The position numbers and the translations under genes are program-made. The notes beneath the pieces are model-generated. The model did not search any database. It was not told the origin of the DNA and saw nothing but the letters and a program-made list of their open reading frames with translations. Below, piece after piece: positions 2,508-63,707 of a stretch of DNA of 64,000 nucleotides (its first letter is position 1; every line of letters starts with the position of its first letter). The DNA is from a virus, in the IMG/VR virus record IMGVR_UViG_3300045988_060821, positions 80,819 through 144,818 of that record. One strand, 5' to 3'.

Positions 2508-5500
2508 ATGAATAATATATCTGAACAGCTATTACAGGCTATGGATATTATTACGGAAGAAAAGGTAAGATAGTTAAAATATGATAAAACTATCCAAGCC
2601 ACCGTTTATTCTATTGTAGATGTAGATACTGGAGAATACAAAGTTAGATATAACGGCAACATCTTTTCCGCGTTTAGCGAGGATACTAGTAAAAGCTATT
2701 CTATTAAAGATGTGGTTTATGTCAAAGTGCCAGAAGGTAATTTCTCTAACAAGAAGTTGATTACTTCCTTGGTGACTGCGAAGTCTTTATCCAATGCTTA
2801 GTTATCCGATTTAACTAACTCTGTATTTGAAGTATCTCCTACTTTTGATGCATTGTATGATGGAGCTTATGACGCTTCACAAAGTTACGGAGTAATTGCG
2901 GGAACGCCAGTTGGAGAGATCGGAAGTTCTATTTATATTTTTCAAAATAGTGAGGAATATGAGTAGAATGGATATCACGGTTTATTTCAACAATACTCTA
3001 ACAATTATGAGTATATCCGCCTAAAAGCATCTTTCTTAACTCAGTTCCATAATGTCCATAATCAAGGTAATTATGGCATTGAGGTTGAGTTCTATACCAA
3101 GGATAATAGTAGCGTAAAATATAGATTAGATCTCTAGAACTTTAATGGTAATCCTTATGGATTCTCAGTCTACTCTCCGTAGTAGATTATCCTTAAGGCG
3201 CAGAAGAACTATTTAATGGGACTTAAATCTATTAGACTCTTTGAAGAAGACTTTGTCTATGATAAAATTGTTAAGAATGGCATAGTTACAGATAAAGAGA
3301 ATAGAACTGTTGCTAATATTTTTGTAAAAGATATTTCCCTTTAGTATGTTGATATGCAGGATTTAAGTGATACGACCTATTATCTCATGATTTCTGCCCC
3401 CAAAGGTATTGCCTTTACGGATAAAGTATCTAGCTTGAATTTAGTTGGACGCTTAATTTATAATGGCGAAGACATTATGGATAGTAAGAAATGTGTTTGT
3501 CAATGGTATGAGAGAGACTTAAGCGTGGTTGTTGGTAGCGATGAATATAGCAAGTCCGCAGGTTTCGGATGGAGGAAAATTGACGGGCAAACATCTAGCT
3601 CTCTTACTCTTGATGCAACTGATATTCTATATCAATAGAAGTATAAATTAGTAGTCGTCTATAATGATAGCATTACTCTAACTGCGGAAATCGCTGTATG
3701 GAATCGTAATGCAAGTTATGATTATTCTATTGAGCAAGTTACTGATGGTGCTGATATTAAACTACAGATTAGAAATAATGTTGATAGTGAGTCTTTGGTG
3801 GGAGATTGGTATTTATCTTATCCAGATAATAGTTACAGCTCTGTGCCGGAAGGAGAAAAGAAGTCCGAGATTGTCGTAAGTTCTTATTTGCAATACAGTT
3901 CTGTGACTTTCTATTGCATGGTATATAATTCTGCGGGAGAGTTTATCGGAACTTTAGAACATACTATTGTGAATAGTGAGAGCGAAGATGATGTAACTAT
4001 TAGTTACATCGGTGAAGATTCCTTTAGATACGATGCTAATGGCGATATTTCTATTGAAGACGCAGAGAAAGAAAGAACTCTATAGGTTAATCTAGCATGG
4101 AAGGAAGGATTTGGTACTTCTTATTTCGTGTCTTGGTTAATGAAAGATGCGAATAATAAAGAGTACGAGATCCCTACCTCTAAAGAGCTTGCTTATAGTC
4201 CGGACAACTCTATGCTTGAGAATATTTGGGTTGACAAATATAATATTTTACACTACAATATTAAATAGAAGTATAGAGTTAATTTCAGTAATAATACAGT
4301 TATTATAAAAATAAGAACGATTACAGAATCTATTTATCTATTTAATAAAGAGATTCTTTGTTTGAAAGATGGCGACTAGGGAACTAATGGTACTACCTAT
4401 ATTACCGCGATTCGTCCATGTAATTCAGACGGCGTAAAGTTAAGTGGATTACAGCCTTTAAGATATAATAATGGATGGACTAATGATATTAGGGTTCGTT
4501 GTTATGTTTATAAAGATGGAGAATTGATTAACGGTAATAGTAAGTATTCTATTACATATAAATGGCAAGGAACAAATGTCACAGTAGAGAACAAAGAAAT
4601 GGTTACTGATTCCGTTGATCGAGTTCTAGTGCGCGGTATACCTACGATTTCCGCAGATACCCCTAATGCAGAGTTAGCTTTCTATGTGAGAGTTCAAGTT
4701 ACTATTAAAGATGATAATAGCTCGGTTGATATCTACGCTTCTTATCCTCTTGATGTTATCGTTGGTTCTACCTTGGCGAGTGCTATTGATATTGATACTA
4801 TTCCGTCTTATATCAAATATAATTCTTCTGGTTTAACTCCCTCTTTCTATAGTAACGATATTAACTTCTATTATAATGATGTAGCTTATAATGATAACAT
4901 TACCTCGTTAAACACCAATATCCTTACTATTAAGACAGATAATGGTAAGAAATATTTAGAACCAGCTTCTAGCTTTATCTTTGAGAATATTAAGGATAAT
5001 GATTAGAGCAATATCGGTGTATTAAATCTTGCTATTCCAAATAGTAACGATAGATTAATTCATCCAATTATTATGTATCTTGATACTTATGGTAATGAAG
5101 CTATCAACGGTTGGGATGGAACAGCTCTTGATACTGGCGATGGAGAATATGTATTCGCTCCACAGGTTGGTGCAGGAACAAAAGATAGCCAAAATAGATT
5201 TACAGGCGTAGTCATGGGTAAAGATAGTGGCCAAGATAAAGTGGGTTTATATGGCTATCAGGAGGGCGTTAATACTTTCGGTTTAATGGAAGACGGTACC
5301 GCGTTCTTCGGAGCTTCTAGCGGAGGCGGCCGCATTGAGATTAACGGTAAATCTGGTTCTATTAAAGGCGGCGGTGGAGGAAATAATTCCACTGGTATGA
5401 CTATCAATTTTGCCGATCTTAATCCTGGCAATAATACTACTGCAATCAAGATAGGTGGAGGAGTTTTTGAAGTTACATATAATGGTGCTTTAAAAGCAAC

Positions 5501-6398
5501 CTCTGCGACTATTGAAGGTTAGATTTTTGCTCAGTCTGGTAAGATTGGTTGTACTAGCAGAAATAGTAATGATGGTTGGACTATCGAGAAGAATAAATTA
5601 TATAGCGGAAGTGGAGCAACAAGAGTAGAACTAAATAGTGATAAGGATGAAGAGTTTGCTATTTGGGCTGGTGCTACAAGTTCAACTTCTGCAAAAGATA
5701 GCTATTTTGCAGTTTCTAAAAAAGGTTCTCTCTACGCTAAGCAAGGTAATATTGGCGGATGGATTCTTAAGAGTAAATCTCTTTCTAGCAATAACAATAA
5801 AATTGGTATGGCTAGCTCTGGTTCTTATGTATTTTGGTCTGGTGCAAATACCGGTAATCCAGGTGATACTCCAGATTTTAGCAATAGTGGTACCTACTTC
5901 TATGTTACTAATGGCGGAAAACTCTCTTGTAAGAACGCAGAAGTGCGTGGTAACATTACCGCAGATAGCCTTGAATGTGATAATGGTGAGATCGGTGGAT
6001 GGACTATTAGTAGTAATTCTCTACGAGGCGGAAGCACTTATCTATATTCTAGTGGTCGAATTGTTTGTGATGACCTTAACTGTGATGGTGGCAATATCGG
6101 TGGATGGACAATTGGAGAAGATTCAATTTCTGCTAGTGGCACTATTTTACAAAGTGATGGTAACATTTATACTAGGTTAGGTAGAATTGGTCTGGTCGAA
6201 GGAGAAGATAGCCAAGGTACTACTTATAACTTTGGAATGTAGGCAACTGGCGGTAATGGAAGTGTTATCATTCAAACGACATATGGCAATGGTAACGTAG
6301 CTCTACGTGCCGCGAATTATATTATCTTAAATGGTAATAGACTTACTTGCACAGTGCCAGCAGCTAATCAGTCTGGTATTTATGCAAGATTTGCTTAA
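2508..6398 (+). CDS. Giant virion structural protein (about 1296 aa) with about 13 in-frame TAG codons. The C-terminal half carries repeated GxIGGW(T/I)I motifs (tail fibre or baseplate-spike-like).
   Basis: SD box AAAGGAGTGAAAGGAG then ATG at 2508. ORF-track pieces 3354-3638, 3795-4085, 4524-5006, 5073-5522 and 5808-6242 are all congruent with frame 2508. No TAA or TGA occurs until TAA at 6396-6398. Confidence 0.65.
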
Positions 6399-6411
6399 GG
6401 AGGGATAAATA

Positions 6412-7243
6412 ATGCCGAGTGCTTCTCTTACTTTTGTCAGTGCAAGTCGTTCTAGTGTGCAAATTGAGTATGATGGAAGTGGGTGGAATATCCCTGCCAA
6501 TGGGCCTGAACACAGTTCTGGATGGTCTACTATAACAAGTACTGATACTAGACAAGTTCAGTAGAAAACTGTCACTCAGGTAGTTTATGATGTTGCTGGT
6601 TGTACTACTACTTGGCATTGGAGTTTTAGTGGTGGTAATGGTGGTTCTAGTTCTGTTAAGACTGAAACCATTACCATTGGTGGAATGACAGCAGGATCGA
6701 GAGGTAGTGTCACAGGAAGGCTCTCAGCTACAAGAAGTGCAAAACAAAAAAAAGAAGTTTATACACGCACTCGAACTCGTACTAAAACGACAGTAAAAGA
6801 TGATAAAGGAAATACTACTACTAAGTATGGAGAGTGGAGCGATTGGAGTGAATCGGGTCCAAGAACAACATATAGCTCTGCTAGCAGTAAAAATTTAGGC
6901 TCTGCATCTGATACTTTGGTATTTTATACTAAGCCAGCTGAGTTTTCATGGGGTAGTGGTGTAGACACTGATAAAACTATTTAGGTATCTGGTGGACTTT
7001 CAGCTAGTAAGTGGAATACCTTGGTTGCTAGAGTAGAATAGCGGAAGAACTGGGAAAATTAGTCTGGCAGAGCTAATTATAGTGATGCGGAGGTTAGCTC
7101 TGGTGAATTAGTAACAGCCGCTAAATATAATATTTTAGCTAGAGCACTTGGCGTAAGCCAAGTGACAGCACACACAGATAGAACTACCGGTACACTTATT
7201 ACTGCTAGCGTATTTATTGCATTATAGACTGCGGTTAATGCAT
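6412..7243 (+). CDS. Ser/Thr-rich virion-associated protein (about 277 aa) with recoded TAGs; the stop is TGA.
   Basis: SD box TAAGGAGGG then ATG at 6412. Piece 6685-6984 is in the same frame. TGA at 7241-7243. Confidence 0.5.
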
Positions 7244-7261
7244 GAGCTAAAGGAGATAACC

Positions 7262-7623
7262 ATGTTAAATAAAGATATTGTCACGATGTACCGTGGGTTA
7301 ACAAGCTTGGCTTCCGATCTGGAAACCAAGCTTCCCGCGAAGGTATCATTTGCTATTGTTAGGAATATTAAGCTTTTAACTCCTATTGTTGAAGATATTG
7401 ATTTTGCTCGTCAATCAGTTGCAGCAACTTATGGAGTAGAAGTCGATGGTGGATACAGTATTCCTGAATAGCAAATAGATACAGTTAATTAGGAGTTAAC
7501 TGCGATTGCGGAAACAGAAGTTGATGTTCCTATTGTTAAAGTTAAAATGTCAGATATTGAGAACTTGAATATCTCTGTTGGTATCGCAGAAGCTCTTGAG
7601 TTTATGATAGAGGAAGAGGTTTA
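7262..7623 (+). CDS. Small structural-module protein (about 120 aa, 2 recoded TAG).
   Basis: SD box AAAGGAGATAACC then ATG at 7262. TAA at 7621-7623 sits inside a terminator hairpin. Confidence 0.45.
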
Positions 7624-7647
7624 AGTCTCTTCCTCTTTTCTTTTTGC
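7609..7647 (+). terminator. Rho-independent terminator (GAGGAAGAGG / CTCTTCCTC stem, T-run).
   Basis: 10-bp inverted repeat followed by TTTTCTTTTTGC. Confidence 0.65.
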
Positions 7648-7721
7648 TTGGACGGATTTAATTATCTTAACCAAAGCAATTTTTATAATATATAGAGTTA
7701 GAGAAAAAGGAGGCGCGGAAT

Positions 7722-10463
7722 ATGCCAATTAGTATTTATCCGCCTACTTTATAGAGTACATAGCCTGCATTTTTAGCCACTACGCCGGACTATGAAATCA
7801 AATATACTCTATAGAAGGTGACAAGTGCCGAGACTATTAAACATATTCAAATTCGAGTAGTTGAATAGCGCTCAAATTCTAGCATTGTAAATACTTCGAA
7901 ATACCCAGACAATATTATCTATAAGAATGTGGATTTGACTAAAGAGTCTAGCCCTTATGGAATTAAAATCCTAACTGCGGACTTGCGGAAATCTTGGTCA
8001 CCAGGCGTGTGTTATAAGATTCAGTTACGCTTTGGATCTACTAGCTTTCCTACTGACTTAAGTTCTTTTGCCGCATGGAAGAAAGAATAGATTAACAATC
8101 AGACTTTCTCTGAGTGGTCTACTGTCATGATCATTAAAGCTATCGCGCAACCAGAAATTTATATCGAGAATGCCGGTACTTTAAGAACAGATGTTATTGC
8201 TAGTAAGTAGACAGAGGCTAGCTTAACTCCATTATTTGTAGGAGATTATATTGATAATGCTTCTGAGGAACCGTTGGAGAAATATAAGTTTGATCTATAT
8301 GATGAAACTGGAACGGATTTAATCGAGTCATCAGATTGGATTCAAGCAGTTAGCGGTAAGAATAACTCTTATCGGTTTAAGACTATGTTGACAAATAACG
8401 AGTCTTATAAAGTTTATTTTTCTATTGTAACGCGCAACGGATATGAAGCAAGAGTATTCTATGACTTCCAAGCTGTTAAAGTATATTTAGAAGCATTAGA
8501 AGGCGTAACAATGCGTGTAGATGATACAGATGTCTATTGTCGTGAAAACGGTTGTATGCGAATTTATCTAACCGCAAAGAATCCATTAACTGGATGTTAT
8601 GTACTTACTCGTGCATCTGAGGAGAGTAATTATCAAGTATATGAGGATTTAAAGTATTTTAATTACTTTGAAGAAACTCTTAATGATAACCTAATTTATA
8701 CAGATTTTATTATCGAGAGTGGCGTCAAATACAAGTATGCTTTCTAGTATCAAAACTCTCAAGGATTGCGGAGCGCGCCTTTGCAAGAAAGTGGTTCTCC
8801 TATTCCAGCGAGAAGTGTTGACTTTGAATACTCTTATCTATATAGAGATGGAGTATAGTTGCGTTTGAAGTATAATCAAAAGCTCAGTAGCTTTAAGCAT
8901 ACGGTACTAGCGAGCAAGCAAGATACCCTCGGAGACCAATTCCCGCATTTAGCGAAGAATGGTTATGCTTATTATGCCGAGTTTCCAATTAGCGGTTTAA
9001 TTAGCTTCTAGATGGATGAAGACTAGACCTTTTTTACTTTAGGGACAGATGGTTATTATTATAATAATGAGTTGGTAATCCCTAAAGATAAGTTTAGTAT
9101 GTCTACTGCGGCGAGAGGAGAGATTACAGCTCCTTCTTATCTTGCTATTGATACTAATATTACCGATGATAATATTTTTATAGAGCGTAAGTTTAGAGAG
9201 AAAGCTGAATAGTTCCTTAATGACTTTACTTATAAACTCTATAAATCTCCAACTGAGGGAAACATTATTGTTGGCCTAATGAATGTATCAATGACACCTA
9301 ATGCATCCCTAGGGCGTATGATTTTTGAGTTCTCTGCTACTGCTTATGAAGTTTTAGAGAATACGCTTGAAAATCTTAACGAGATTGGCATTACTGATAT
9401 TGGAGTTTTTAGTAATGAAGTATCTACCGAAGAACAATCTGCATTTGGTCAGATTAGTGGTATCTATTCAGGATGTCCTGAAGGAGATGATATCTATGCT
9501 TTAATTAAGCAATAGGAAGAGATTGCTGTTGGCGATGGTCGATATAAGTTGTCTCTTATTAATGTCGATTCCTTCTGGATTGAGAGATATCCAACTATTG
9601 ACTTTGATGGTAAGATTTATGAGTTAGAGGCAAAGAAGGCTGAACAAGAGCAAGCTGGAGAAGATACTAAAGAGACAGAAGCTGAACTTACTCGTTGGGC
9701 GGCACTAAAAGAAGCCGCAAGTAATGCTCCATCTTCTGCGGTTAAACTTGCTGTTAATGGAACTGATATTATTGTAGCTCCAAATAGGTTATATAGTGTC
9801 AGAGAGGGCGTCAGCTCTTTAACTATGAAATCTGTTAAATATCCCATTATTGTGAATTATGTCTGCTCTTTAACAAGAGAAAGAAATGATGAAGTCGGTG
9901 AAGTAGAATCTATTGATACTTCCCGTATTTGGGGCTAGATTTCTGGTATCTTCAGCGGAACTGATAAAGTCTTAAAGAACTATAAGTATTACTATGGACC
10001 TGGCGAGACTCCGTATCGTATCTATAGTGATTCTACTGTGGAAGAAGATAAGTTGGGTCGTATCTTGGTAGATAATACGAACTATAATGTTTATAAGACT
10101 ATCAATCTATATGATATTATAGAAGAAGAAACTCGTAAGCAAGTAGAGTTTATCTATAATATTCAAGGTGGATTTGAGCAAGATGAAGATGGTAAATGGA
10201 CAGATGGAATTATCTATTATTCCTTCTCTGATATTACCTCCTTCGACATTGAAGCAGACCCGCAAACCATCCTATATATCGGCCAAGAAAAAGATGGTAG
10301 CGATAAGCATCCAGTTATGCTCGGTCCAACTGGTCGATATACCCTTAGCCCGATGGATGGTATGATTAAGTATATTGCTTTATAGAAACCACAATTTGCG
10401 GTTATTAACTATAAATGCCTAACCGCGCAGACAACAATGAAGTATAGCAAAGAAAGGAGTTAA
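7722..10463 (+). CDS. Large virion structural protein (about 913 aa) with many recoded TAG codons.
   Basis: SD box AAAAAGGAGG then ATG at 7722. Pieces 8274-8747, 9279-9515, 9549-9938 and 10038-10385 all share the frame. The first non-TAG stop is TAA at 10461-10463. Confidence 0.6.
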
Positions 10464-10468
10464 TATTC

Positions 10469-12372
10469 ATGTTTGAGTATCTTAATGACATGGATTTTCT
10501 AATCTAGTTAGATAAGTTGCATATGCGAGTACAGTATGCAAAAATTATTCTCCTTTCTTTCAAGGACGAAGAACCTATTAAAGAGATTTAGGGTTCTATC
10601 ACGAGTGGCAACTTGAGTGTTAATGGTTCTTCCGCAATTAGAAGAACCATTAACCTTACTATGCTTGCTTCTATTGATAATAGTAATCTTGAAGATATTG
10701 ATAACGAGATTTCTATTAACAAGAAGATTAAAGTCTTAATTGGTTATGACAATCCATTAAAGTCTTATAAGAACTATGGAGATATTATTTGGTTTCCTTG
10801 CGGCTTGTTTGTTTTATCCTCTGCTAATATTAGCCGCTCTACTAGTGGTTGGAATATTTCTATTACGGGTAAAGATAAGATGTGTTTATTAGACGGAACC
10901 GCAGGCGGCACTTTGCCGGCATCAATAACCTTTCATGAAAGTCTTGTTTAGCTTGATAATGGAGACGTAGAGATTCAATATCCTACTATCTTTCAAATTA
11001 TCTATGAAGCGGTAAATCACTGGGGTGGAGAAGCTATTGAGAATATTATCATTACTGACATTGATGAAGAGATTAAGATGTTAGTAAGATATATGGGAGA
11101 TAAGCCAGTATATTTCTCCAATGACTACTAGAGTTTAAGCTTTGAAGCGCAAGCAGATTATCCGCATATGTTTAGTTATGGACAAGATGTTGGATATAAG
11201 TATACCGACTTTACCTATCCAGGAGAGTTGGTATTAAATGCAGGAGACACGGTAGTAACTCTATTAGACAAGATTGTTAGCACTCTTGGCAATTATGAAT
11301 ATTTCTATAATATAGATGGCAAGTTCGTATTTCAAGAGATTAAGAATTATCTTAATACCGGTAGTCCTCTATTAGAGTTAAGTCCAGAAGACTATGTACG
11401 TTCATATAATAATGCAAAGTTTTTATACTCGCTTACCGATCTTGACACGACAACCGCGATTACCCGCAATCCTAAGTATGATAATGTGAAGAATGACTTT
11501 TATGTTTGGGGCAAGCGTAAGACTTCAACAGGCGTAGAGGTGTCTATCCGTTATCATCTTGCTATTGATGATAAGCCAGATATTGACTTAGCTATGTAGA
11601 ATATGTGGGAAGTCAAAGATAAAGAATCTAACCTTATTGTGCGTTATGATTTCAATACTCTTGATGAATACAGCGTGGATGGTTATGTAGTTACCTTAGT
11701 AGGTACTCCATGCGACGAGTGGAGAGAAGAGCTATACCGTCGTGCTCTTAATGCTTAGGTATCTAATAGTGTCTATGATAACTATTATGATTCAGAGCTA
11801 ATTGCGGAGTGGCGTAATCTATATAATCCAATGAACAAGAATTGGGATGCTACAAATCATTGGAACCCAGATGTATTTAATGACCCAGGTTCTATTAACT
11901 TCTGGCTAGATTTTATAGATACTAGTTCCGCTCTCGGTAAGTATTCTATTAAGAATATTGGCCGTAGGACTAAAGTCGTTAATAATAATGACATAAAAAC
12001 CGTATATAATAGCGAAGTTCCTGATGTTGTATTTATTGAAGGATTAGATTAGGACTTGATTGTTAAATATCAAGGGATTGGTTAGAGATTCTTTATTCTA
12101 ACCAATGAATACTATGATATGTTTTCAATAAGCACTACTGGAACTAGTTGCTTTGACCAAATTCGAGAAATGATGTATTAGAATTTATGTTATAATACTA
12201 CTATTTCTTTAACCTGTTTGCCGAAATATTATATAGAGCCTAATAATATAATTAGGGTTGAAGATAAAGATAGCAATATCTATGGTAATTATCAAATTAC
12301 TCAATATTCTCTACCTCTTACTTATAATGGCGCTATGAGTATTACTGCAACAGAAGTTTTAACACGAGTATA
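10469..12372 (+). CDS. Virion structural protein (about 634 aa, baseplate or tail-associated) with recoded TAGs.
   Basis: SD box AAAGGAG then ATG at 10469. Pieces 10613-10951, 11168-11599 and 11831-12052 are congruent. TAA at 12370-12372. Confidence 0.55.
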
Positions 12373-12386
12373 AGGAGGAGAGGGCG

Positions 12387-12965
12387 ATGTCTGCTATTGG
12401 ACAAATCTACTATCGTGTAGTAGATACAAGTAGCACTGGCGATGGAAAACATTATATTTCCTCTGGAATTGATATTTACAATGATATTGTAAGTGCTTCT
12501 AGTGCCAAATAGTTTACCAAAGTTGGTATTCAGGCTCCACCGGGAGCGCAAGTTGTCATGAATGCTAGCAAGACTATCATGATCGGCCGCACTGGTATTT
12601 ATGAGCTTGATGAAGATATTGTTATTACAAGTATGAAATTCGTTCGTCCTACAGTTTATATTAAAGACGAGGAAGAATCAGAAAGTAAGAAACAAGAAGG
12701 CGAGAAGATTATCAAGGAGGCTAAGGCGGCTCTTGAGGCCGCTATCGCTGCATTGGGAGAAGAGCCTACTGATCCAACTTCTGATGCTTATAAAACCTAT
12801 TGGAATGGATATAATGAAGCCAATGAGACTTACATTGCTGCATTTCAAAAAGGTAGTGCAATTTTAAATCAAGGTCTAAATGGAGTTTACAAGGAAGATA
12901 AAACTGTTGTTGGCGAGTTAGATAACGTGATTGTAGACTTTATTTACGATCCACTCTAGGGATAA
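12387..12965 (+). CDS. Hypothetical virion protein (about 192 aa, 2 TAG).
   Basis: SD box TAAGGAGGAG then ATG at 12387. Piece 12558-12959 is in frame. TAA at 12963-12965. Confidence 0.5.
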
Positions 12966-12977
12966 GGAGGTATAGAC

Positions 12978-14897
12978 ATGCAATCTTTCTACGGAGGTCC
13001 TGCTGGACAGAGCTTCGAGATTAAAAAGATATTTGAGTCTTATTACGGTCCTGATGGAGCGCAAGTTGACTTAGATAAAGGATGGGCATCTCCTATCTCT
13101 GTGGGCGAATTTGTTATGGTGTCTTATGGCTTGCCATCTGACGCTACATACATGACTCGCATGAACTATGACTTAAATGCGGGTGACAAGAAAAACTTAA
13201 ACTCTACTTTATGGTAGAAAGTATATGACGAGTCTGCGGGAGAGGGAAGTGGTCTTAGCTATAAGCTCATTTCTTCTTGCACCGGTAATACTCCAAAGAT
13301 TAGTATTACAAAACCCGCAATCGTGCTTCATGCGAATGAACAGCCAGACATTGAAACTGATTTATCTAACCAAGATATGCCAGTTATTCAATTTAAGTTG
13401 CCAAGAGCATAGGTATTATCAATGCCGCAAGAAGCAACTGTTCTAAATGCGGATGAAAAGCCAAGTATTGTATATAACGATGATGATATTGACCACCCAA
13501 CCGTGCATTTTAATATTCCGCAGTCTCAAGTAATTGATTAGGTTGCAGTTGATGTTATTGGCGTTGGGGAAGAACCAAAGGTCAGACTTGACTTAACTGA
13601 TATTAACCGACCTGTACTTAAATTCCAACTACCTGTAGCTCAGGAATTTTTAGACAGTAACATTCTTCACGAAGTATTAAATGCTAATGCTGAGCCAACT
13701 GTAAGTTTTGGTTATAGCGAAGAAGATACTCTTCACAAGCATCCTATCTTGACATTCTCTCTGCCTCGTAGCCAAGTAATGGCTGCACCAGAGACGATTA
13801 CTAGAGCGCCAGACTTTGAGCCTAAAGTAACTGATGTTGGAACGGTCAATGAACCTAAATTACATTTTGAATTGCCTCGTGCGGTTAAGTTCTATTATGG
13901 TAGCTTGTTAGGGCAAAGAACCAATAAAACATATACTCTTACCGATCCACTTTTCGCCAATTATGGAGTTGGAGATTACTATATCAATGAATCCACTGGT
14001 TTTATTTATAAAGTAACTAGTAAGACAGATGATACTACTTGTGTCTTTGAATATCAAGCAAGCATTCAGCAACCGCTACCAGTAGTCAACGCTAGTGCTA
14101 TCGCTCCTTATATCGAAGGTGACGAAGGATTTAAACCTGCGGTTCCGCAAGTTAAAAGGACACTAACAAACGCGGAAGGTACCGAATGGCAACTTGAATT
14201 TAAGCTCCCATAGGCTCCGAAGCCCGCAGTTTCTTCTACTTTTGTTGGTTCGGCAGAGCAAGGATCTGTCACTTCTGCTATTACTAGCGAAGACACAGTA
14301 ACCTTTACTTTCAAGATTCCAACTGGTAGTAAGCTATTCGCGGGTCTTGAGATTACAGCCGATGGAGCAACTACCACTATTGATGGCGCGAGAATCGGAG
14401 ATATTTATCTCAATAGCGAGACCGGTGTTTTGTATACTTTAACCGCTAATGGATGGAAAGCTAGTGAGAAGAGTATTAAAGGTCCTGTTGGGGATGCTCT
14501 TAATATTGAAGCTGAATATCATTTAACTGAAACTGCGGAGTTCGCTGCTAGTTTAGCAAATGGTGTCACCTATATTCAGGAACACTATTCTGGTACTATT
14601 GATTCTCATAAAATCTTTGCTATTACTTGGGCTTTGCTTGATAATGGCGGAGATGTATCTTACTGGTATTATAAAACTAATGCTGGTGAGTGGGATAGAG
14701 CGCAATTAACTGGTGGCATTTCTAGTTTAATTGAGCAGTCTTACAAGGAAAATGTTGACAATAAGACTTACTCAGTCAATTATATTAACTCGCTAATTGG
14801 CGGCGATGGAGATACATCAAAAACGGCTTATTCTAAAGATTAGGTATAGAGCCTTGTTTCATGGGGATCTTTCCAAGACCTTATAGAAAAGCCTTGA
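12978..14897 (+). CDS. Fibre-like protein (about 640 aa) with tandem ~30-aa repeats ending in (K/H)F.LP..Q motifs. Recoded TAGs; TGA stop.
   Basis: SD box TAAGGAGG then ATG at 12978. Pieces 13749-14213 and 14430-14843 are in frame. The repeats are ...VIQFKLPRA, HFNIPQSQV, LKFQLPVAQ, LTFSLPRSQ, LHFELPRAV and LEFKLP. Confidence 0.55.
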
Positions 14898-15754: not shown

Positions 15755-16210
15755 TTAATGGCAAACTTTGTCTTTAAGATGGTAGTGCGGAATTTCCTCG
15801 CCAAACCATTTCCAACGGAGATAGTCGTCGAGAAAGATAGCTATAAGAGCTAATCCGAACCATGCGAGTGAGAAAGGAAGACAAACCTGCCCCAATATAT
15901 TGAAAGGTAAGTTTGAATAGTCCCAAATTCCTAGCTTTAGGACTAGATTCAAAATTACGCCGAATACAAATTCAAGTGAGGTAACTATTGCGGCTCCAAT
16001 AGCCCCTTGTTTAATGATAGACATTTCCCAAGGTATAACCTCGTTTATCTCTCCAATAAGAACGAAACAAAGTCCGCCTAGGAGAAACATTGACCAATGT
16101 ATCATACCTCCACTAATGAAGGTCTTAAACAAGAACTCTATAATAAAATAGAGAGAACCTCCAACAGTGAATAAGGTAAGAAACTTATTCAGTTTAGTCC
16201 GCATAATCAA
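15755..16210 (-). CDS. Multi-pass integral membrane protein (151 aa).
   Basis: Intact ORF with a TAA stop at 15755-15757 and four or more hydrophobic helices. Confidence 0.5.
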   Translation of the reverse strand: MIMRTKLNKFLTLFTVGGSLYFIIEFLFKTFISGGMIHWSMFLLGGLCFVLIGEINEVIPWEMSIIKQGAIGAAIVTSLEFVFGVILNLVLKLGIWDYSNLPFNILGQVCLPFSLAWFGLALIAIFLDDYLRWKWFGEEIPHYHLKDKVCH

Positions 16211-16850
16211 GCTCTACCTGTTCTAGCTCCTCTAAAGAAGCTGCTCCATAAATAGAGATTTTATACTACTGCATTTGACGATACATTGGATATACAGCCG
16301 CAGAGATGGACATAGACAATGCAACAAGATTTTCTAATGTCCAAGGCTAGCACTCTTCGTGTCGAGCGTGCCATTCCAGAATTGGAGATTCAATACCTGC
16401 CTGAACGGCGATCTGATATTGACTTAAGTTAAGACTAATCTCAGATTGATCCTCCATTGTAACTCCATATTCTTTTCCATCTGTCCATGTTAATGGATGA
16501 GAAGCAAGATACTCTGCGAAAAGTAGCTTGTTCTTCTCTTGCTTAAGCTCTTTAGCTTCATCTAAACTATAACGATAAACAAAACTCTGAGTTTCATTGT
16601 CGAACTTATATAGATTAGGTGTAACATTGGATGGAATTTCTTCAACTTCGATAACGCGAACTGCGTTAGGAGAGTTGATTGTATCAGCTTGAATTAAGAC
16701 ATAATGAGTGTCGCAATCAGAGCCAATAACCCCAGTGCCTTCTTCTTCTGAACAGGCAACGACAATACCATTGGAAGATTGCAGTTTAATGTAACGAAGA
16801 TTGTCGAGAATATCAACTACAATATTCCCACGATTTAATAATACATACAT
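16194..16850 (-). CDS. Hypothetical protein (about 218 aa, 3 recoded TAG). Its ATG overlaps the RT stop (TAATG).
   Basis: ORF 16347-16850 continues through TAG at 16347-16349 to TAA at 16194-16196. It is translationally coupled to the RT. Confidence 0.45.
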
Positions 16851-18115
16851 TACTTTATTTCAACTCCTTTGAATAGTGAACGAAAATAATTATCCATATC
16901 TTGGATAATATAGAAGCTAGATCCTTTAGCGATATGTGCTCTCCAACCTTGATAAGATTTCTGAATTTCTTCAGTAGGAATTTTACCTTGTTGCCATAAA
17001 GCAGCCATTTTACGCAATTTTCTGCGCTAATGAACAATCTTTTTCTTAAAAGGTATCTAGATTACATGATTTGTAGTAGTTAAATAGAAATTCCATTTAA
17101 GATACTTAAATGGAGTGCCATGAACCTTATCTTTAGGTGCGATAGGGGTAATGCGCGAGATAGTGGTTTTCTTCTAGTTAAGAGTAAGACCTATATCTTT
17201 TAATTTCTTCTCTATCTTAGCTTTACATTCTGCTAAGTATTTGCTATCGTTACATAGAAGATAAGAATCATCCATGTAGCGTCCATAATACTTAATATGT
17301 AATTCTTCTTTAATGAAATGGTCAACTTCGTTCAAAGCTAGCAATGCAAATAACTGTGATGTCTAACTGCCTAGTCCAAGACTTTTAGCTTCACACTCAT
17401 AATATTGATGATGCGGCCGGAAAGACTGGATATCCGCAGGTATATATTTTCTACCTTTAGCAATATAATACTATTTGCCCGGAATTGGATGCTTATCTTT
17501 TGTTAGCTTAAAAGAAAATGTATCAATTAGGTATGAGCATAATTCATAGACTTGAGGATCTTTAATAACACGCTTAGCGATTTCTTTAAGAGCCTCATGG
17601 TCGATAGAATCAAAGTATTTACGAATATCAATTCGTAAAGCAAAGAAATCGTTTCCTAATCCGTACTCTCTATGAGCCATCTGTAAATGTTTCTTTGCTC
17701 TTGCTAAAGCAAAATCTATACCTCTATTTTTAAGCGTTGCATAGTTATCATAAATAAACTTAGGAGTTAATTCTGGTAGTAAGCTCTATTCACATAGGGC
17801 ATTTTGTACCAGTCTGTCGTTGATATGACACGCTCTTATATCTCGTGGCTTACCTCGTTCAATGATTGAGAAACAACTAAACACAAGCTGCTTGTATTCA
17901 CAAGCTCGCAAATCGGCTTCTGTTTGTAAGATTGTTTCAATTCTATTCTCTTCAAAATTGATTGTACTATCTTTCCATCGAACATTTCGACAAACTCGAT
18001 AAGAGGAATCATATAATGCGTCAAAACTACAAAAACGCTCGAAAGATGTCTACTACTAACTCAACTTCTTTCTCCTTATCATACAGTAATAGCGGTCACT
18101 TCGCGAGTTCCGCAT
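16850..18115 (-). CDS. Diversity-generating-retroelement reverse transcriptase (about 420 aa), read through about 9 recoded TAG codons.
   Basis: The frame of ORF 17471-17680 carries the RT motif-2 sequence FDSIDH (RIDIRKYFDSIDHEAL). Extending that frame through TAG codons gives YYGRYMDDSYLL (YxDD catalytic motif) and GLTLNQKKTTI downstream. The gene ends at TAA 16850-16852. Confidence 0.85.
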
Positions 18116-18368
18116 CTGTAATCGTATTTATTTATCCGTCGCAAGGACGAAATAGTCAAGTTCTCCTTAGATGAAAAGGCATCTACCTATAATATACTAT
18201 TTAATAATATGTTCTATTCCTTCTCCTTCTTAGTCCACAAAGGTGAACCAATGCATCCAGAATAAACCATAATTAGATGGACAATAATATATTCTGGGGT
18301 ACTATTCTAGGTGTTGCTCGTCTGCGCTGCTTCGCAGCTTGACTTGCAACGTGATAGCTCCATCTAAT

Positions 18369-18468
18369 CCGGCGCGAGGCCATTGCTGTTGTTGTAGTTG
18401 TTGTTGTTCGCGTTCCCGTTGTTGTTGACATTGCACACGTTGTTCGAGTTGTTGTAGTTGCGCGAGCG
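18369..18468 (-). repeat. DGR template repeat (TR). The coding-strand sequence is AAC-rich (translating to RSRNYNNSNNVCNVNNNGNANNNNYNNSNGLAP).
   Basis: 100-bp near-repeat of 19097-19196 at offset +728. There are 22 mismatches; 21 of them fall at TR adenines on the minus (coding) strand. Confidence 0.85.
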
Positions 18469-18500
18469 AAAAATACAGAACTTGACATCTTGTAAAATCA

Positions 18501-18995
18501 TTACCGACCTCTTCTATAACTCTTTGGCTTCTAGTAGGAATGCTCGTAGATTAAATAATCTCGATTAACTCTATCCTATAAAGTTTCCTTCATAGCTTTT
18601 GTTAAACGAGCAAGATGCTCAAAAGAGCGTCGTTTCTTCTGATTGGTCTATGCGTATTCGAAGATACAGAGATCGATTTGACGAAAGATACTATCACAAT
18701 AAGCGATAGCCTAATTCCAATATTTCTTTCGTGCAATTAGAGTTTCCTAACTATTCAAGTAGATTTCACTAGCTTGATAGCAGGCGGCATGTATGCCTTT
18801 TCCGCATTTAATAATATCTAACCCGAAGGCTTGGAAAGGTTGTCCCTCTCCAAGCAATCCGGGCTTTTTAACTTGTTTTCCAGATTCGTCAAACTCTCTA
18901 GGACGAGTTAAGACTAAAATGTAATTTACCAGTTCGCGTGATTTCTGGAGACATTCACGCTTGGATTTATGTCGATCTTTTGTTTTTACAGACAA
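18501..18995 (-). CDS. Candidate Avd (accessory variability determinant)-like small basic protein (about 165 aa, 5 recoded TAG), located between VR and TR.
   Basis: ORF 18747-18995 extends through TAGs to TAA at 18501-18503. It is basic with K/R-rich termini, and its position matches the canonical DGR order. Homology cannot be verified by eye. Confidence 0.4.
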
Positions 18996-19076: not shown

Positions 19077-20852
19077 TTAATTACCAATGACGAAAGCCGG
19101 CGCGAGGCCAAAGCTGTCGTTGTAGCGGCCGTAGTACGCGTTCCCGCTGCCGGTGATAAGGCACACGGCGTTCGAGTAGCTGCAGTAGCGCGAGCGCTCC
19201 CATGGATAACCGTAGCTACTTGTGGATGTATCTCCTAAATACATGATGCGTGTAGCATTACTGGTATAATAACTATACGCAAAATTCTTACCCTAAGTAC
19301 ATTCTGCTTTTGATGTAGTAGAATTGGCAATAGAAAGAGGAGAATAAATATCAAGACCAAATTCTCTTTCAGAAAGCAAGAATACTGTTTCGTCATTATA
19401 AGTTACATTTTGATTTCTGTCACCATAATTGGGGCAAGTACCTTTTTTAATTGTCTTAATGGCTGCTTTACCGGGGAAGGCATTATAGTAATTTTGACAC
19501 AGGCTTCTAGCTGTAGAACCAATCCAAGCTGCATTACTACCAAAAGTAGTATATTGACTTAAACAGTTTTTAGTCTGGAATGTAACTGTATTATTAGCAT
19601 CTTGATCTACGCCAATAACTCTAATTAAGTGAGTAGTAGTACCTAAAACTGCGCTTGAAAGCGTTACAGATTTAGTTGTACCAAGAATGGCACCACCGCT
19701 ACTAGTCTTAATAGATGTACCAGTATGAGAAGCAAGATAGTTCTTTAGTCCCGTAAACCATGCTGCATCAACAGTACCACCATCAGCGCCCCAAGACCAA
19801 TATTCTGCGCTAACGGTAATTGTCTTATTGGCAGGAGCAGTATGGTTAGTACCTGCGGCGACACTAATAGTAATAGTTTTTGCGGAAACCGCAGTAGAAC
19901 CATTACCTTTAATGGTAAGAGTATTGCCATTAAGAGATAGTGTTAAACCAGAAATACTAGTAGGACTGTAGCTAATAGCGCCATCACCGGTGCGAGTAAT
20001 AGTAACAGCTACACCGGAACTATAGTTATTACCATTAATAGCTACTGTTGTTGGGTTTACATTCAAACTACCTGTTGCTTTGTTGATTGTCCAGTTGACA
20101 TTAATTGCGGTGGTCGTTCCGTCCGTCCAGCGATAATTGCTTCCTGGTGTAAAGGTAGCAATATAAGTGCCAGCATTAGTTGCAGATGTTGTGCCACCGA
20201 TAGTCATGTAACTAGCATTGTAGTTATTCCAATAACTGGTGCTACTAACAGATTGCGCGCTTCCAGTATATGTAAGATTACTCTTCCACGTAGGTTTAGC
20301 TACAGACTTACGATTGACTGTGACATTAAAAGTCGCAGTTTGAGTAATTCCATTTTCTGTGTAGCTAACTGTAACTACTTGATTTCCAACAGTTGAGAAA
20401 GTTGTTGGAGAACAAGAGTAACCAGTTACAGTTTTAGTTTGAGAATCGGAATAACTAGCTGTTACTACCATTCCCGTGGTAACAAGAGTATCTCCATACT
20501 CATAAGTCAACTTATTGGGTTTAGTAGTTACAGCAATCGTGGAGAGCCTATGCGTGACTGTGACTGCTAGAGTCGTAGTGCAAGTTTCTCCGCCCTCAGA
20601 GTAGGTGATGGTTACGGAAGTAGTACCATCAGTTAAGACGCTAGGGGATACAGAATATCCACTAACTTCTGCGGTTGCTAGAACCGCTTGCCCAGTACCA
20701 TAAGATGCGGTAACGACCATACCGGCGCTATTGAAGCTGTCGCCCGCAAGATAGCTGGTCTTAGTAGGCTTAGTGGTGACTTCGATCTTCATAAGAACGA
20801 TGCCGCTTCCTCCACCTTTTCCGCCTTGCTCAGCTAAAATACACTTAGGCAA
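19077..20852 (-). CDS. DGR target protein (about 591 aa): Ig-like (BIG2-type) repeats followed by a C-terminal C-type-lectin/FGE-like variable domain. One recoded TAG at 19293-19295.
   Basis: Strong SD box GAAGGAGG then TTG at 20852 (alternative ATG at 20792). ORF 19293-20996 reads through the TAG to TAA at 19077-19079. The VR occupies the last ~35 codons. It carries repeated VTASY...TVTV Ig-like modules. Confidence 0.8.
19097..19196 (-). repeat. DGR variable repeat (VR) at the 3' end of the target gene. It includes an invariant GC-rich 14-bp 3' element (TGGCCTCGCGCCGG on the coding strand; IMH-like).
   Basis: See the TR entry. The VR codons encode RSRYCSYSNAVCLITGSGNAYYGRYNDSFGLAP. Confidence 0.85.
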
Positions 20853-22742: not shown

Positions 22743-22765
22743 ATAATTTTACCAAAAAATTTGGC

Positions 22766-22795
22766 AAAGTTGTTAAATCAACTTTGCCAATTTTT
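22766..22795. repeat. Perfect 30-bp palindrome TTGGCAAAGTTG-TTAAAT-CAACTTTGCCAA followed by a T-run. Either a terminator or a recombinase binding site.
   Basis: Seen directly. It lies between the TGA of 22149-22742 and the serine recombinase start. Confidence 0.6.
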
Positions 22796-22817
22796 ATTAT
22801 ATAATGAGGTGATAAAG

Positions 22818-23423
<606 letters not shown>

Positions 23424-27437: not shown

Positions 27438-27917
27438 TTACCAAGCGCATTTATTCTTCTTGATATGATGAGTTCCAATGCATACAGCATCCGCAATATC
27501 CTAGATAACATGGATACCATAATTCTATTCTACATAGAGTTGAGCATTCTTTTTCTATTCTGCTCTTGTTCGACCTTTAATACCTAAAGTAGATTTCCAA
27601 GACGAGGCGAGGACTGTTGAATGAGGAATCTGGATTTCTTGCAGTAATTCTGAAACAACTCCATAAACCTCTGCCAAGACCTTAAAGGTCTAAACATTAT
27701 TAGCCACATTGTTCTGTTGCTAAATATCTTCAAAGATTACTTCGTCGATATTATAATCTGTAACTAAAGTCTAAATACCCTATCGTAACTAAACTAGTCT
27801 AATATCGGTATTTGGATCATCTAAAGAAATCTTGCCGTAGGACTTTAACTTTCCATCTTCAAAGATAGCCCATCCCGTAACCTTCGAGGCTTGGTCAAGG
27901 GCTAACAAGCGACTCAT
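27438..27917 (-). CDS. RuvC-like Holliday-junction resolvase (159 aa) with 7 recoded TAG codons.
   Basis: N-terminal MSRLLALDQASKVTGWAIFEDG... and C-terminal ...IADAVCIGTHH (RuvC motifs). It is invisible in the ORF track because of the TAG density. Its ATG overlaps the dUTPase stop (TAATG). Confidence 0.7.
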
Positions 27918-48451: not shown

Positions 48452-48763
48452 TCAGTTATCGTCTCCCACAGTATTTGTGTATCCTACAATGTTGAATTGA
48501 TTGAGCCAGCTATCTAGTTCATCAATAACAGCAATACATTTCATACCTCTAGCTTTTGTTAGAAAATATCCATAGCTAATAAATCCTAAATTTTGCGGTA
48601 GATTACGCTCTTTTGTTAACTCTAAGAACTTTTTAACCATCAGTTGAGGATGTTGAGTAACAAAGAGTACCATCTTATCAGGATACTTATGTGCTAAATC
48701 ATTTGCGTAGTACATTAAGCTAGTTGTCTTACCTGCACCACGACTTGCAATTACCTTAAACAT
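48452..48763 (-). CDS. Small P-loop NTPase/kinase-like protein (103 aa).
   Basis: Walker A SRGAGKTT. SD box GGAGG then ATG. TGA abuts the thyA-like ATG. Confidence 0.4.
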   Translation of the reverse strand: MFKVIASRGAGKTTSLMYYANDLAHKYPDKMVLFVTQHPQLMVKKFLELTKERNLPQNLGFISYGYFLTKARGMKCIAVIDELDSWLNQFNIVGYTNTVGDDN

Positions 48764-49680
48764 TATGAACCTCCACGAGTTCCATTCATACCTAGTTCTT
48801 TAGTCTTATAGAACTCAATCCAATAAGTCTCTCGTTCATTTAACTAATCTCTAGGCACTTCTTCCAAAATCTCAAATATAAAATTATATTGACCAGATTT
48901 TTGCATCGCCTAATATAACTTATTAGTCACAGGTCCGTATGCTAAAGAGGTTTTAATGTGCTGTCTAAAACGCTCTTTAATATCAACAGACTAACCAATA
49001 TAAGCCTAACCAGTTGTTAGATCGGTAATTTTATAGATACCGCATACTTTACCTTTATTAGTGGCAAATAGATGCGTCATAAGAATATCATATGCAGGAC
49101 GATAATAGGTCTCCCATATTACTTTATCAATGATTTCCTTTTTCACAAAGTGAATTTGCAAATCACGCAATAGAGTAATATCGTTCAAACTAAATTCATC
49201 AATAGCAAGACGATAATAGTCCTAATCTGCGGCAATTGCTTCTTGGCGTTGCTAAGCCTAGATATAAGATAACTATTTAGCTTCCAATTCATGGAGTTTA
49301 TCTTGCTAATGTGAGATTTGATTAGTTATCTATTGAAGTTCTGCTAAATGATATTTTTCTTTAGCTTGATATGTTTCATCAAGCTCTTTACTTTTCTTTT
49401 CAAATTGAGCCTTAGCGCTCTCTTCTGCTCGCTATTCAGCGCTTTCCCGCAACTTATTCGCAGTATCAGTCAAAGAATTGACAATTTCATTATGTGATAC
49501 AATATCTTCTTTTACTTTTGCTAATTCTCTCTATTTCAATGCAATATCTTGTTCAATGCGTTTATTCTCTTCTTGTCTTTCTTTATTTATCAATACTACC
49601 TAAAGCCGATTATTGCGAAGATATAAAACATATCCGATCAGCGCAAGAATAACCAAGCCTGATAATATATAATAAATCAT
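48763..49680 (-). CDS. Membrane-anchored coiled-coil protein with a C-terminal GIY-YIG nuclease domain (about 305 aa, 15 or more recoded TAG).
   Basis: The frame of ORF 49006-49188 extends both ways through TAGs. The N-terminus is a TM helix MIYYILSGLVILALIGYVLYL, then about 180 aa of Q/E/K/A-rich coiled-coil. The C-terminus reads KVCGIYKITDLTTG-Q-AYIG-Q-SVDIKERFRQHIK...YNFIFEILEEV...ERETYWIEFYKT...GMN (I-TevI-like catalytic core). TAA at 48763-48765. Confidence 0.6.
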
Positions 49681-62913: not shown

Positions 62914-63618
62914 TCACTTCCTTTTAGGTGTTGTAATGGCTTCAATTCTCGACATTCCATTTTTCATACGCTTGTATACTGAATTTTTTGAAATATTATA
63001 AATGGAACACCAATCTTTGAAATTGTGAAATTCTCCATTGATTTCAATTAACTTGCTGGCTTCTTCTATGGGGATGTTATTTGGAATGATTTCCAGTGTT
63101 TCTGGATTATATTCCCTAAATATAAATCCCTTTACTGTTTTATATCTGTTACTACCGGATGCGCATTTTCTAATACTAGCTCTATCAGTTCCTAACTCAT
63201 GAGCTGCGGCAGTTATTGTAGGAAAAAATTTCTTTTCTCCACTTGTTTCTGAAATGGCACAAATGGGTGTTGCCAATTTAGCTCGTACTTCTGGATCATC
63301 AAACGGATATTCTGTGTTTAGAGTTTGATTATATCCATGCTAAGAGGTTAAGCTATTATATTCAATAATTGCATCATGCTCTAATTTATATCTTTCTTCT
63401 GGAGTTTGAATATCTTTTATTAAGATTTGAAAATCAAAATTCTCTATACCATATTTTCTTATGGCTCGATATAATGGATATTCATATCCTGCGCGAGATT
63501 CGAGACGAGCATTTTGCTAATGTTCATACCACCTTGTTGTAAATCCTCGTGACTAGTCACTGGAACCAATATAGGTTTTATGGTTAATCAGATTTTCGAT
63601 TTTATAAATGAAATACAT
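62914..63618 (-). CDS. Free-standing GIY-YIG homing endonuclease with C-terminal NUMOD/IENR-type HTH DNA-binding domains (about 234 aa, 3 recoded TAG).
   Basis: SD box GGAAGGTGATAAA then ATG at 63618. N-terminus MYFIYKIENLINHKTYIGSSD-Q-SRGFTTRWYEH...E..YN..L..GYN. C-terminal piece 62914-63276 carries KKFFPTITAAAHELG...VKGFIFREY HTH modules. TGA stop. Confidence 0.75.
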
Positions 63619-63707
63619 TTTATCACCTTCCATTTATAAATGGAAATTCTTACAGACTCTTTTATTACTTCTGACCTCATCTTTGATAGTCATTGAAAAA
63701 CTTATTC

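Follow-up and report, generated by a model that had tools for sequence, protein, structure and literature searches.

The stretch of DNA analysed here, a window of 64,000 nucleotides (nt) that corresponds to positions 80,819 to 144,818 of IMG/VR virus record IMGVR_UViG_3300045988_060821, carries a diversity-generating retroelement (DGR). All features of the cassette lie on the minus strand, in the order target gene, variable repeat (VR), Avd-like gene, template repeat (TR), spacer, and reverse transcriptase (RT) gene, and are listed in Table 1. The gene string was read by translating 21100-15700 in three frames and then again with TAG kept as sense. We consider it likely that the element is an intact, active DGR, situated within the tail-fibre region of a phage in which TAG specifies glutamine (Gln), and that expression of the RT and Avd awaits a suppressor transfer RNA (tRNA).

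The identity of the element rests on its RT, its repeats, and its target. The RT matches Pfam RVT_1 (2.8e-16) and, over residues 5-398, PHROG 1423 ‘reverse transcriptase’ (4.4e-85); its motifs, LGSQTSQ at residues 237-243 and YMDD at 269, fit the [ILV]GxxxSQ and YxDD pattern of the DGR clade, and its closest solved relative is the RT of the Bordetella phage DGR (8ub7_A, E=7.5e-14, the best PDB sequence match). TR and VR pair without gaps over 103 nt and differ at 23 positions, 22 of them TR adenines and one elsewhere. Both repeats end with the GC-rich sequence GGCCTCGCGCCGG, which resembles an initiation of mutagenic homing (IMH) element, and diverge beyond it. The VR ends 17 nt ahead of the stop codon of the target gene, whose product has Big_3 Ig-like repeats and, C-terminal to them, a DUF6273 domain (residues 407-569 of 571) containing the VR; no second VR was found in the window besides 19094-19196. 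The GC content of TR (52%) and VR (65%) compares with 39% for the window and 34% for the RT gene.

The RT frame extends to TAA 16852-16850 from either TTG 18064 or ATG 18082, the latter being the start picked by public gene callers (410 amino acids [aa]), and contains no TAA or TGA in its 404 or 410 codons. Because the TTG sits 7 nt downstream of an AAGGAG Shine-Dalgarno sequence, three consecutive TAGs near the beginning of the gene are probably codons 3-5. A preliminary description of this stretch, made from the sequence alone, had put about nine TAGs in the RT frame and five in the Avd-like frame, and both counts are borne out: nine in the RT gene (lowest coordinates 18056, 18053, 18050, 17786, 17471, 17363, 17174, 17057, and 17027, the six that it had listed being exact to the lowest base of the codon) and five in the Avd-like gene (18747, 18711, 18648, 18576, and 18531), which runs from TTG 18995 to TAA 18501 over 164 codons, again with no TAA or TGA in frame. 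Its reading of the junction behind the RT is likewise seen directly, base 16850 being common to the RT stop codon (TAA, 16852-16850) and the next ATG (16850-16848) in the arrangement TAATG. Under the standard code the RT terminates after 2 codons from the TTG or 8 from the ATG, and both RT and Avd are fragmented, so that their expression does need TAG as sense, as had been proposed. The RT frame is not broken by indels, since homologues of 400-410 aa align with it end to end (97% identity, E=1e-266). About 430 nt without a long frame separate the Avd-like gene from the RT frame; they include the TR and a spacer that, by analogy with the Bordetella phage DGR, would sit where the Sp RNA segment does in that element.

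Table 1. Features of the DGR cassette and its surroundings in the window, followed by features located in related loci (L numbers).
Feature	Coordinates	Strand	Basis
DGR target gene, 571 aa	19077..20792	-	Pfam Big_3 1.3e-12, DUF6273 8.8e-11; translation
VR, 3' end of target gene	19094..19196	-	ungapped TR/VR pairing
Avd-like accessory gene, 164 aa, TTG start, basic, 5 in-frame TAGs	18501..18995	-	position, fold
TR, 38 adenines, 15 AAC codons in VR frame	18366..18468	-	TR/VR pairing
TR-RT spacer, ~300 nt, non-coding	18065..18365	-	stops in all frames
DGR RT, 404 aa (TTG) or 410 aa (ATG 18082), 9 TAGs	16850..18064	-	Pfam, PHROG, homologues
Triple TAG, probably RT codons 3-5 (9-11 from ATG)	18050..18058	-	translation, relatives
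218-aa gene, ~75-aa N-terminal domain and DUF4376-like C-terminal helical domain, 2 TAGs	16194..16850	-	Foldseek, weak Pfam
149-aa membrane protein, no TAG, last gene of packed minus-strand string	15755..16204	-	PF06541 4.2e-12, phrog_20274 1.3e-40
tRNA(CUA)	L217:394-484 (also L212-L215, L218, L219)		array of ~30 tRNAs, relatives
N-domain open reading frames overlapping RT 3' end	L036:7049-7462, L043:3687-4271, L046:2015-2731		consensus M-Y-x3-K-N-G ... Y-V-K-L-Q-x-N-G ... C ... G-V

Comparison among relatives points to an element at work. Fourteen relatives whose TR differs from that of the window by at most 1 base carry 14 distinct VRs, and these are polymorphic at 36 of the 38 TR-adenine positions versus 1 of the 65 other positions. 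When TAG is taken as Gln, the ratio of nonsynonymous to synonymous substitution rates (dN/dS) against relatives comes to 0.06-0.11 in the RT, 0.02-0.09 in Avd, and 0.06-0.12 in the 218-aa gene that follows the RT, values that for RT and Avd indicate purifying selection. Judged by these patterns the DGR is intact and currently active, the evidence for mutagenic retrohoming being indirect and at the population level, across relatives. Adenine-specific diversity of the VR combined with a near-invariant TR argues that RT and Avd are made and working in the lineage, and hence that their TAGs are translated.

Recoding extends over the whole window. Open reading frames (ORFs) of at least 150 codons cover 63% of it under the standard code, 91% with TAG as sense, 67% with TGA as sense, and 72% with TAA as sense, and all 26 close related loci are likewise intact only with TAG as sense. 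The use of TAG is uneven: the structural genes (2508-14897) hold 53 TAGs in 4,104 codons (34% of Gln codons; 1.29 per 100 codons) and the replication block (27917-56055) 20 in 8,602 (6% of Gln codons; 0.23 per 100 codons), figures that for the latter fall to 2% and 0.08 when one GIY-YIG homing endonuclease is set aside. RT and Avd together have 14 TAGs in 568 codons, that is 41% of Gln codons and 2.46 per 100 codons (RT 2.2, Avd 3.0). Their TAG share of Gln codons (0.41) is indistinguishable from that of the structural genes (0.34; p=0.43, Fisher) and differs from that of the replication genes (0.06; p=1e-7).

The identity of the amino acid inserted at TAG was assessed from DNA, because the public protein database already writes Q at TAG and its Q residues would make the argument circular. 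The relatives used for this purpose are 26 related IMG/VR loci, all recoded, with RTs 58-97% identical to that of the window. At RT residue 240, a TAG in the window, 21 of 25 relatives have CAG or CAA, and all 46 distinct RTs of the next-closest clade (~35% identity), which use the standard code, have Q. In three RT columns the alternatives are only CAA or CAG, and at residues 342 and 352 TAG alternates with nothing else; within the closest group (RTs 95-97% identical), RT columns 65, 134, and 240 and Avd column 17 are polymorphic for TAG and CAG. In 5 relatives, which belong to two more distant lineages, a TAG encodes the Q of the hallmark SQ motif. Over the TAG-containing alignment columns of four genes, Gln makes up 23% of alternative residues versus a background of 3%, followed by Glu and Lys, with Leu, Ser, and Tyr rare. 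Beyond the DGR, four of six aligned TAG sites of a serine recombinase gene (22761..23423) are Q in the solved Sin recombinase. The TAG residues are therefore Gln-compatible when set against RT alignments, and none of those in the RT lies within a catalytic motif or on a conserved non-Gln catalytic residue. Taken together, the codon patterns indicate that TAG is Gln in this phage.

That RT and Avd might instead be decaying pseudogenes with true stops, the TR/VR differences being relics of past activity, is hardly credible: both genes are fragmented under the standard code and the RT ORF seems broken at 244 codons in relatives L025 and L026, yet neither frame of the window has a TAA or TGA, dN/dS stays at 0.02-0.11, the TAG sites fall at Gln positions within a window that as a whole needs TAG as sense, and the VRs differ in each of 14 near-identical relatives only at TR adenines, bar the single position noted above. 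L025 and L026 merit a remark of their own, as their RT frame closes after 244 codons even when TAG is read through, which suggests a frameshift or a true stop and possibly a decaying DGR.

The decoder was sought beyond the right end of the window, in relatives ~94% identical at the nt level and in four outward steps. The first ~18 kb past the window hold TAG-free metabolic genes and no tRNA, and further out lies an array of ~30 tRNAs and a transfer-messenger RNA (tmRNA). A tRNA(CUA) was found by ARAGORN in 7 of 7 relatives' contigs examined (Rfam 54.5 bits), and in IMGVR_UViG_3300045988_054378 it lies ~34 kb past the window's right end. It is 91 nt long; its variable arm forms a stem-loop of 4 bp, U1·U72 do not pair, and G73 follows. 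A weak 1:72 pair and G73 fit the identity of bacterial tRNA-Gln and a long variable arm does not; it is the codon evidence that supports the assignment of Gln. Since the arm is class II-like, decoding of TAG as Ser, Leu, or Tyr has to be considered: SerRS and LeuRS do not read the anticodon, and the Bordetella RT has Leu at the position of RT residue 240. We regard such decoding as very unlikely. Q occurs 56 times among the alternatives at TAG columns, against 9 for L, 15 for S, and 5 for Y, and residue 240, the three CAA/CAG-only columns, the TAG-encoded Q of the SQ motif in relatives, and the Sin alignment all point to Gln, as do G73 and the unpaired 1:72.

Two further RNA genes of the relatives deserve mention. 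The tmRNA lies inside the array (L217:3167-3510, also in L212, L213, L214, and L218), encodes the tag DNNYFDSHMAA, and scores 100.8 bits in Rfam; tmRNA rescues ribosomes stalled on messenger RNAs without a stop codon, and its carriage by a stop-suppressing phage is an intriguing pairing. A conserved tRNA-like gene of 74 nt (L188:1888-1961, also in L193-L196, L212, L214, L215, and L217-L219) has an 8-nt anticodon loop, GUUAAAAG, to which ARAGORN assigns the 4-base anticodon UAAA (Rfam tRNA 36 bits), and in this it resembles quadruplet or frameshift-suppressor tRNAs. It was considered as the suppressor and rejected, having no CUA anticodon, once a proper tRNA(CUA) had been found. In relatives, just past the right end of the window, lies a TAG-free cluster of the NAD-salvage type (L130:1-3300, L177:9100-11700), in which, by eye from the translations, nicotinamide phosphoribosyltransferase-like (576 aa), NAD synthetase-like, and phosphoribosyl pyrophosphate (PRPP) synthetase-like proteins are encoded.

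The accessory protein upstream of the TR is called Avd-like on the strength of its position, size, basic charge, fold, and a chain of weak homology, which together make the name a reasonable one. A model built on family member P0244 (74-75% identical to the protein of the window) predicts a four-helix bundle, the architecture of Avd proteins (PF05635, PF22296), in which a short beta-hairpin joins helix 1 to helix 2 (mean predicted local distance difference test [pLDDT] score 89). A hidden Markov model (HMM) of the family matches (E~1e-5), in 35 distant DGR loci that use the standard code, the ORF found where Avd would be expected; one of these ORFs matches Pfam bAvd at 2.7e-6, below the curated cut-off. 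The family profile found nothing at E<=10 among PDB sequences, and an hhalign comparison with the Avd annotated in Roseburia phage Shimadzu reached a probability of only 12%.

The gene behind the RT had been taken in the preliminary description for a probable co-expressed DGR accessory of unknown function. Its 218-aa product has no significant Pfam or PHROG match itself. A match to DUF4376 is weak in all 16 family members tested (best 1.4e-5, below the curated cut-off of 25 bits; E=0.089 in the closest member, P0121, which is 99% identical), and a Foldseek search against viral models, made with a query model of mean pLDDT 68, returned DUF4376 proteins as 11 of the top 15 matches (E 5e-11 to 1e-3), these coming from many unrelated phages and tail-fibre assembly proteins appearing lower in the list. 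DUF4376 proteins of Alteromonas phages V22 and A5 have been shown experimentally to be tail-fibre chaperones, and their genes come immediately behind that of the fibre (PMC7289586, PMC10579305). Going by the structural model and the weak Pfam matches, the 218-aa protein is most likely a DUF4376-type tail-fibre chaperone, not a retrohoming accessory, and the most economical reading of the locus is that the Avd-TR-RT block lies between a fibre gene and its chaperone.

The first ~75 residues of the 218-aa protein (the N-domain) nevertheless keep company with DGRs. The gene adjoins the RT in 37 of 37 related loci, including loci with different other neighbours. An HMM of the N-domain finds the ORF right after the RT in L043 (E=4e-6 among 4,572 ORFs) and, with L043 and L046 added, the post-RT ORF in 13 L036-type loci (E~1e-5) and nothing else. 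The RTs of these lineages (L036-type, L043, and L046) are 37-38% identical to that of the window and 43-52% identical mutually, and their N-domain proteins end in a CBM_5_12 module, in DUF4376 with a tail-fibre PHROG, or in an acidic tail. No copy of the N-domain was found in ~2 Mb of other phage DNA examined, and none in 38 of 53 distant DGR loci or in Roseburia phage Shimadzu, phage nd12, or Faecalibacterium phage Lelie. The loci were sampled because an RT was present, so the co-occurrence is biased. On these occurrences, the N-domain gene appears as a recurrent fifth member of one type of DGR cassette.

That much of the accessory proposal stands, the N-domain following the RT in three further DGR lineages. 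A true accessory that takes part in retrohoming alongside RT and Avd is, in our estimate, quite improbable, even with an ATG that overlaps the RT stop codon, a place behind the RT in every related locus, and an HMM that finds only post-RT ORFs. The C-terminal half resembles the domain of proven tail-fibre chaperones, which tells against the proposal as it was worded; the tail-type C-termini of the other N-domain proteins, the patchy occurrence of the domain, and the RT-selected sample likewise make a structural or chaperone role likelier than one in retrohoming.

How the element would be expressed follows from two pieces of general knowledge: bacterial RF1 terminates translation at UAG, and the RT and Avd of a DGR copy TR RNA into adenine-mutagenised complementary DNA (cDNA), which replaces the VR. 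Early in infection, host RF1 would stop at UAG, and the RT message would give only a dipeptide. Once the phage tRNA(CUA) had become abundant, the late genes, RT and Avd included, would be translated; RT and Avd would then copy TR RNA, and the mutagenised cDNA would replace the VR in replicating genomes, shortly before packaging, so that the tip of the tail fibre would be diversified. We infer this temporal order, suppressor first and DGR after it. The TAG share of RT and Avd, like that of the structural genes, and the turnover between TAG and CAG make ordinary late-gene recoding the simplest reading, in which the DGR would be one more late gene set in a phage that uses genetic code 15. The preliminary description had tied hypermutation of the receptor-binding protein to the recoded state; RT and Avd do need TAG decoding, and there is no sign of a coupling beyond late-gene recoding.

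Several points count against an intact DGR that awaits its suppressor. Neither ARAGORN nor Rfam finds a tRNA in the window, and the suppressor is inferred from relatives; its long variable arm is atypical of tRNA-Gln, its charging with Gln being predicted. The Avd-like protein has no Pfam, PHROG, or PDB sequence match, and its naming as Avd rests on fold and position. The target gene has 1 TAG (19293-19295) among 12 Gln codons, and the TAG-rich pattern is thus not found in all parts of the DGR. In other lineages the first RT TAG is codon 65, 93, or 287, which makes the triple TAG lineage-specific and speaks against a conserved gate. The number of TAGs in the target gene is 0-1 in the closest relatives and up to 6 in others; its TAG-poor state possibly reflects a recent exchange of the fibre gene.

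A stronger proposal is that the TAG load is an adaptive gate, in which TAGs, above all those at RT codons 3-5, have been selected as a control of timing and dosage. With a per-codon suppression efficiency e, yield would scale as ~e^9 for the RT and ~e^5 for Avd, and an error-prone RT would be made late and in low amounts. The run of three among the 9 TAGs of 404 codons has a permutation probability of 0.003; it is kept in 13 of 13 closest relatives, with two of its three TAGs present in the next group, and the TAG densities of RT and Avd exceed the structural average. Yet as a share of Gln codons their TAGs are on a par with those of the structural genes, the triple is absent from four more distant lineages, one of which has a single RT TAG, at codon 287, and the TAG/CAG polymorphism within the closest group is as expected of neutral synonymous change. 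The RT of related loci has anywhere from 1 to 20 TAGs. We find selection for such a gate unlikely. Doubtful to a like degree is the broader notion of a DGR wired to the code switch, through an amber gate, and/or to fibre assembly, with the N-domain protein as a hitherto undescribed fifth component; if true, the protein translated from the stop/start overlap would tie the maturing of the hypervariable fibre tip to retrohoming, or at least to translation of the RT.

The related loci also bear on how long the DGR has been resident. Target, Avd, TR, RT, and the 218-aa gene occur in the same order in 37 of 37 related loci (RTs 58-97% identical), all of them recoded, and the nearest standard-code RTs are only ~35% identical, which together argue that the DGR has evolved for long within the recoded lineage. 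TAG sites at RT residues 204, 303, and 352 are common to several lineages and many others are lineage-specific, in agreement with the earlier suggestion of a native or long-resident element. The cassette had no blastn match, and the 218-aa protein no tblastn match, among 50,697 GenBank phages; the nearest annotated RTs are those of Roseburia and Faecalibacterium phages (31-35% identity). Among the products encoded in the window are a protein with a PHROG tape-measure match, baseplate-like proteins, gyrase subunits, and NrdD. Its DnaE-type polymerase shares ~40% identity with the polymerases of SPbeta and of 134-142 kb Enterococcus phages, and related contigs reach 138-148 kb. These features point to a large, gut-type phage of Bacillota, of roughly 140-148 kb. 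Assignment to the crAss-like phages was considered and dropped, given the tape-measure match and a polymerase nearest to those of SPbeta and the large Enterococcus phages.

Other genes of the window add to the picture of uneven TAG use. A GIY-YIG homing endonuclease gene with a coiled-coil N-terminus (48763-49680, minus strand) has 13 TAGs, half of its Gln codons, and sits midway in a replication block otherwise free of TAG; a second GIY-YIG gene (62914-63633) has 3. The highest TAG density in the window, 8 in 159 codons, is that of a gene for a RuvC-like resolvase (27438-27917, minus strand). The serine recombinase (22761-23423, plus strand) is Sin/resolvase-like (E=5e-30 to 2r0q) and has 7 TAGs, so that it would be producible only in the recoded state; integrases of published recoded temperate phages are reportedly kept free of recoded stops. 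Behind the 218-aa gene, the ATG of the 149-aa membrane protein lies 11 nt within the 3' end of that gene. The PF06541 protein is a four-helix membrane protein and may be holin-like, lysis genes coming after the DGR in related phages.

The element does not overturn current understanding. It does offer a clean natural case of an error-prone RT that would be producible only after a virus has switched the genetic code of the cell, and with it a testable handle on the stage of infection at which mutagenic retrohoming happens. Smaller and concrete leads are the N-domain gene that recurs behind the RT and the probable chaperone, for which the fibre tip to be handled would be hypervariable. In practical terms, DGR finders and gene callers that assume the standard code overlook this RT and Avd or break them up, and recoded phages would therefore be under-counted as carriers of DGRs, a point also made in PMC12386605.

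Among known systems, the DGR of Bordetella phage BPP-1 (bRT, Avd, TR/VR, Mtd; PDB 8ub7, 4dwl) is the natural standard of comparison. Like it, the element described here combines an RT carrying YMDD and a GxxxSQ-type motif with a small, basic accessory protein that is modelled as a four-helix bundle and encoded upstream of the TR. In both, the differences between TR and VR are adenine-specific, the VR closes the 3' part of a tail-fibre gene, and the repeats share a GC-rich end. The present element differs in being written in genetic code 15, in an RT only distantly related to that of BPP-1 (E=7.5e-14 to 8ub7_A), in a longer Avd-like protein (164 aa) with a beta-hairpin that joins helices 1 and 2 and with no sequence match to Avd families, and in a target made of Big_3 and DUF6273 instead of Mtd. 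The chaperones V22 gp27 and A5 gp9 (PMC7289586, PMC10579305) resemble the 218-aa protein in size, in having an N-terminal part and a DUF4376-like C-terminal domain, and in being encoded downstream of a fibre gene; here, by contrast, the Pfam match is below threshold, Avd, TR, and RT intervene after the fibre gene, and the tip of the putative client fibre is hypervariable.

Delay of late genes by stop-codon recoding is an established hypothesis (Borges et al., bioRxiv 10.1101/2021.08.26.457843), and two crAss-like phages use genetic code 15 according to metaproteomic evidence reported by Peters et al. (PMC9523058). Lak, crAss-like, Agate, and other phages are reported to have the same TAG-rich structural and TAG-poor replication genes, together with a phage-encoded suppressor tRNA and TAG read as Gln; in contrast to them, the window also has a TAG-rich serine recombinase (7 TAGs) and homing endonucleases. 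Term searches of the Borges preprint gave no occurrence of DGR, retroelement, or reverse transcriptase.

The nearest precedent comes from Zeta crAss-like phages, stop-codon-recoded gut phages for which in-frame ambers have been published in seven DGR RT genes. The phenomenon is the same, down to the GxxxSQ motif and the tail-fibre targets. The phage of the window differs in belonging to another group, as judged from its PHROG tape-measure match and its SPbeta/Enterococcus-like DnaE polymerase, and in having an Avd-like gene, which only two Zeta phages possess. The core finding, ambers in DGR RTs, is already known in another phage group and follows from genome-wide recoding; added to it here are the evidence for activity, the TAG/CAG polymorphism, the Q of the SQ motif encoded as TAG, the run of three TAGs, the place of the suppressor in relatives, and the linkage of the N-domain to the RT.

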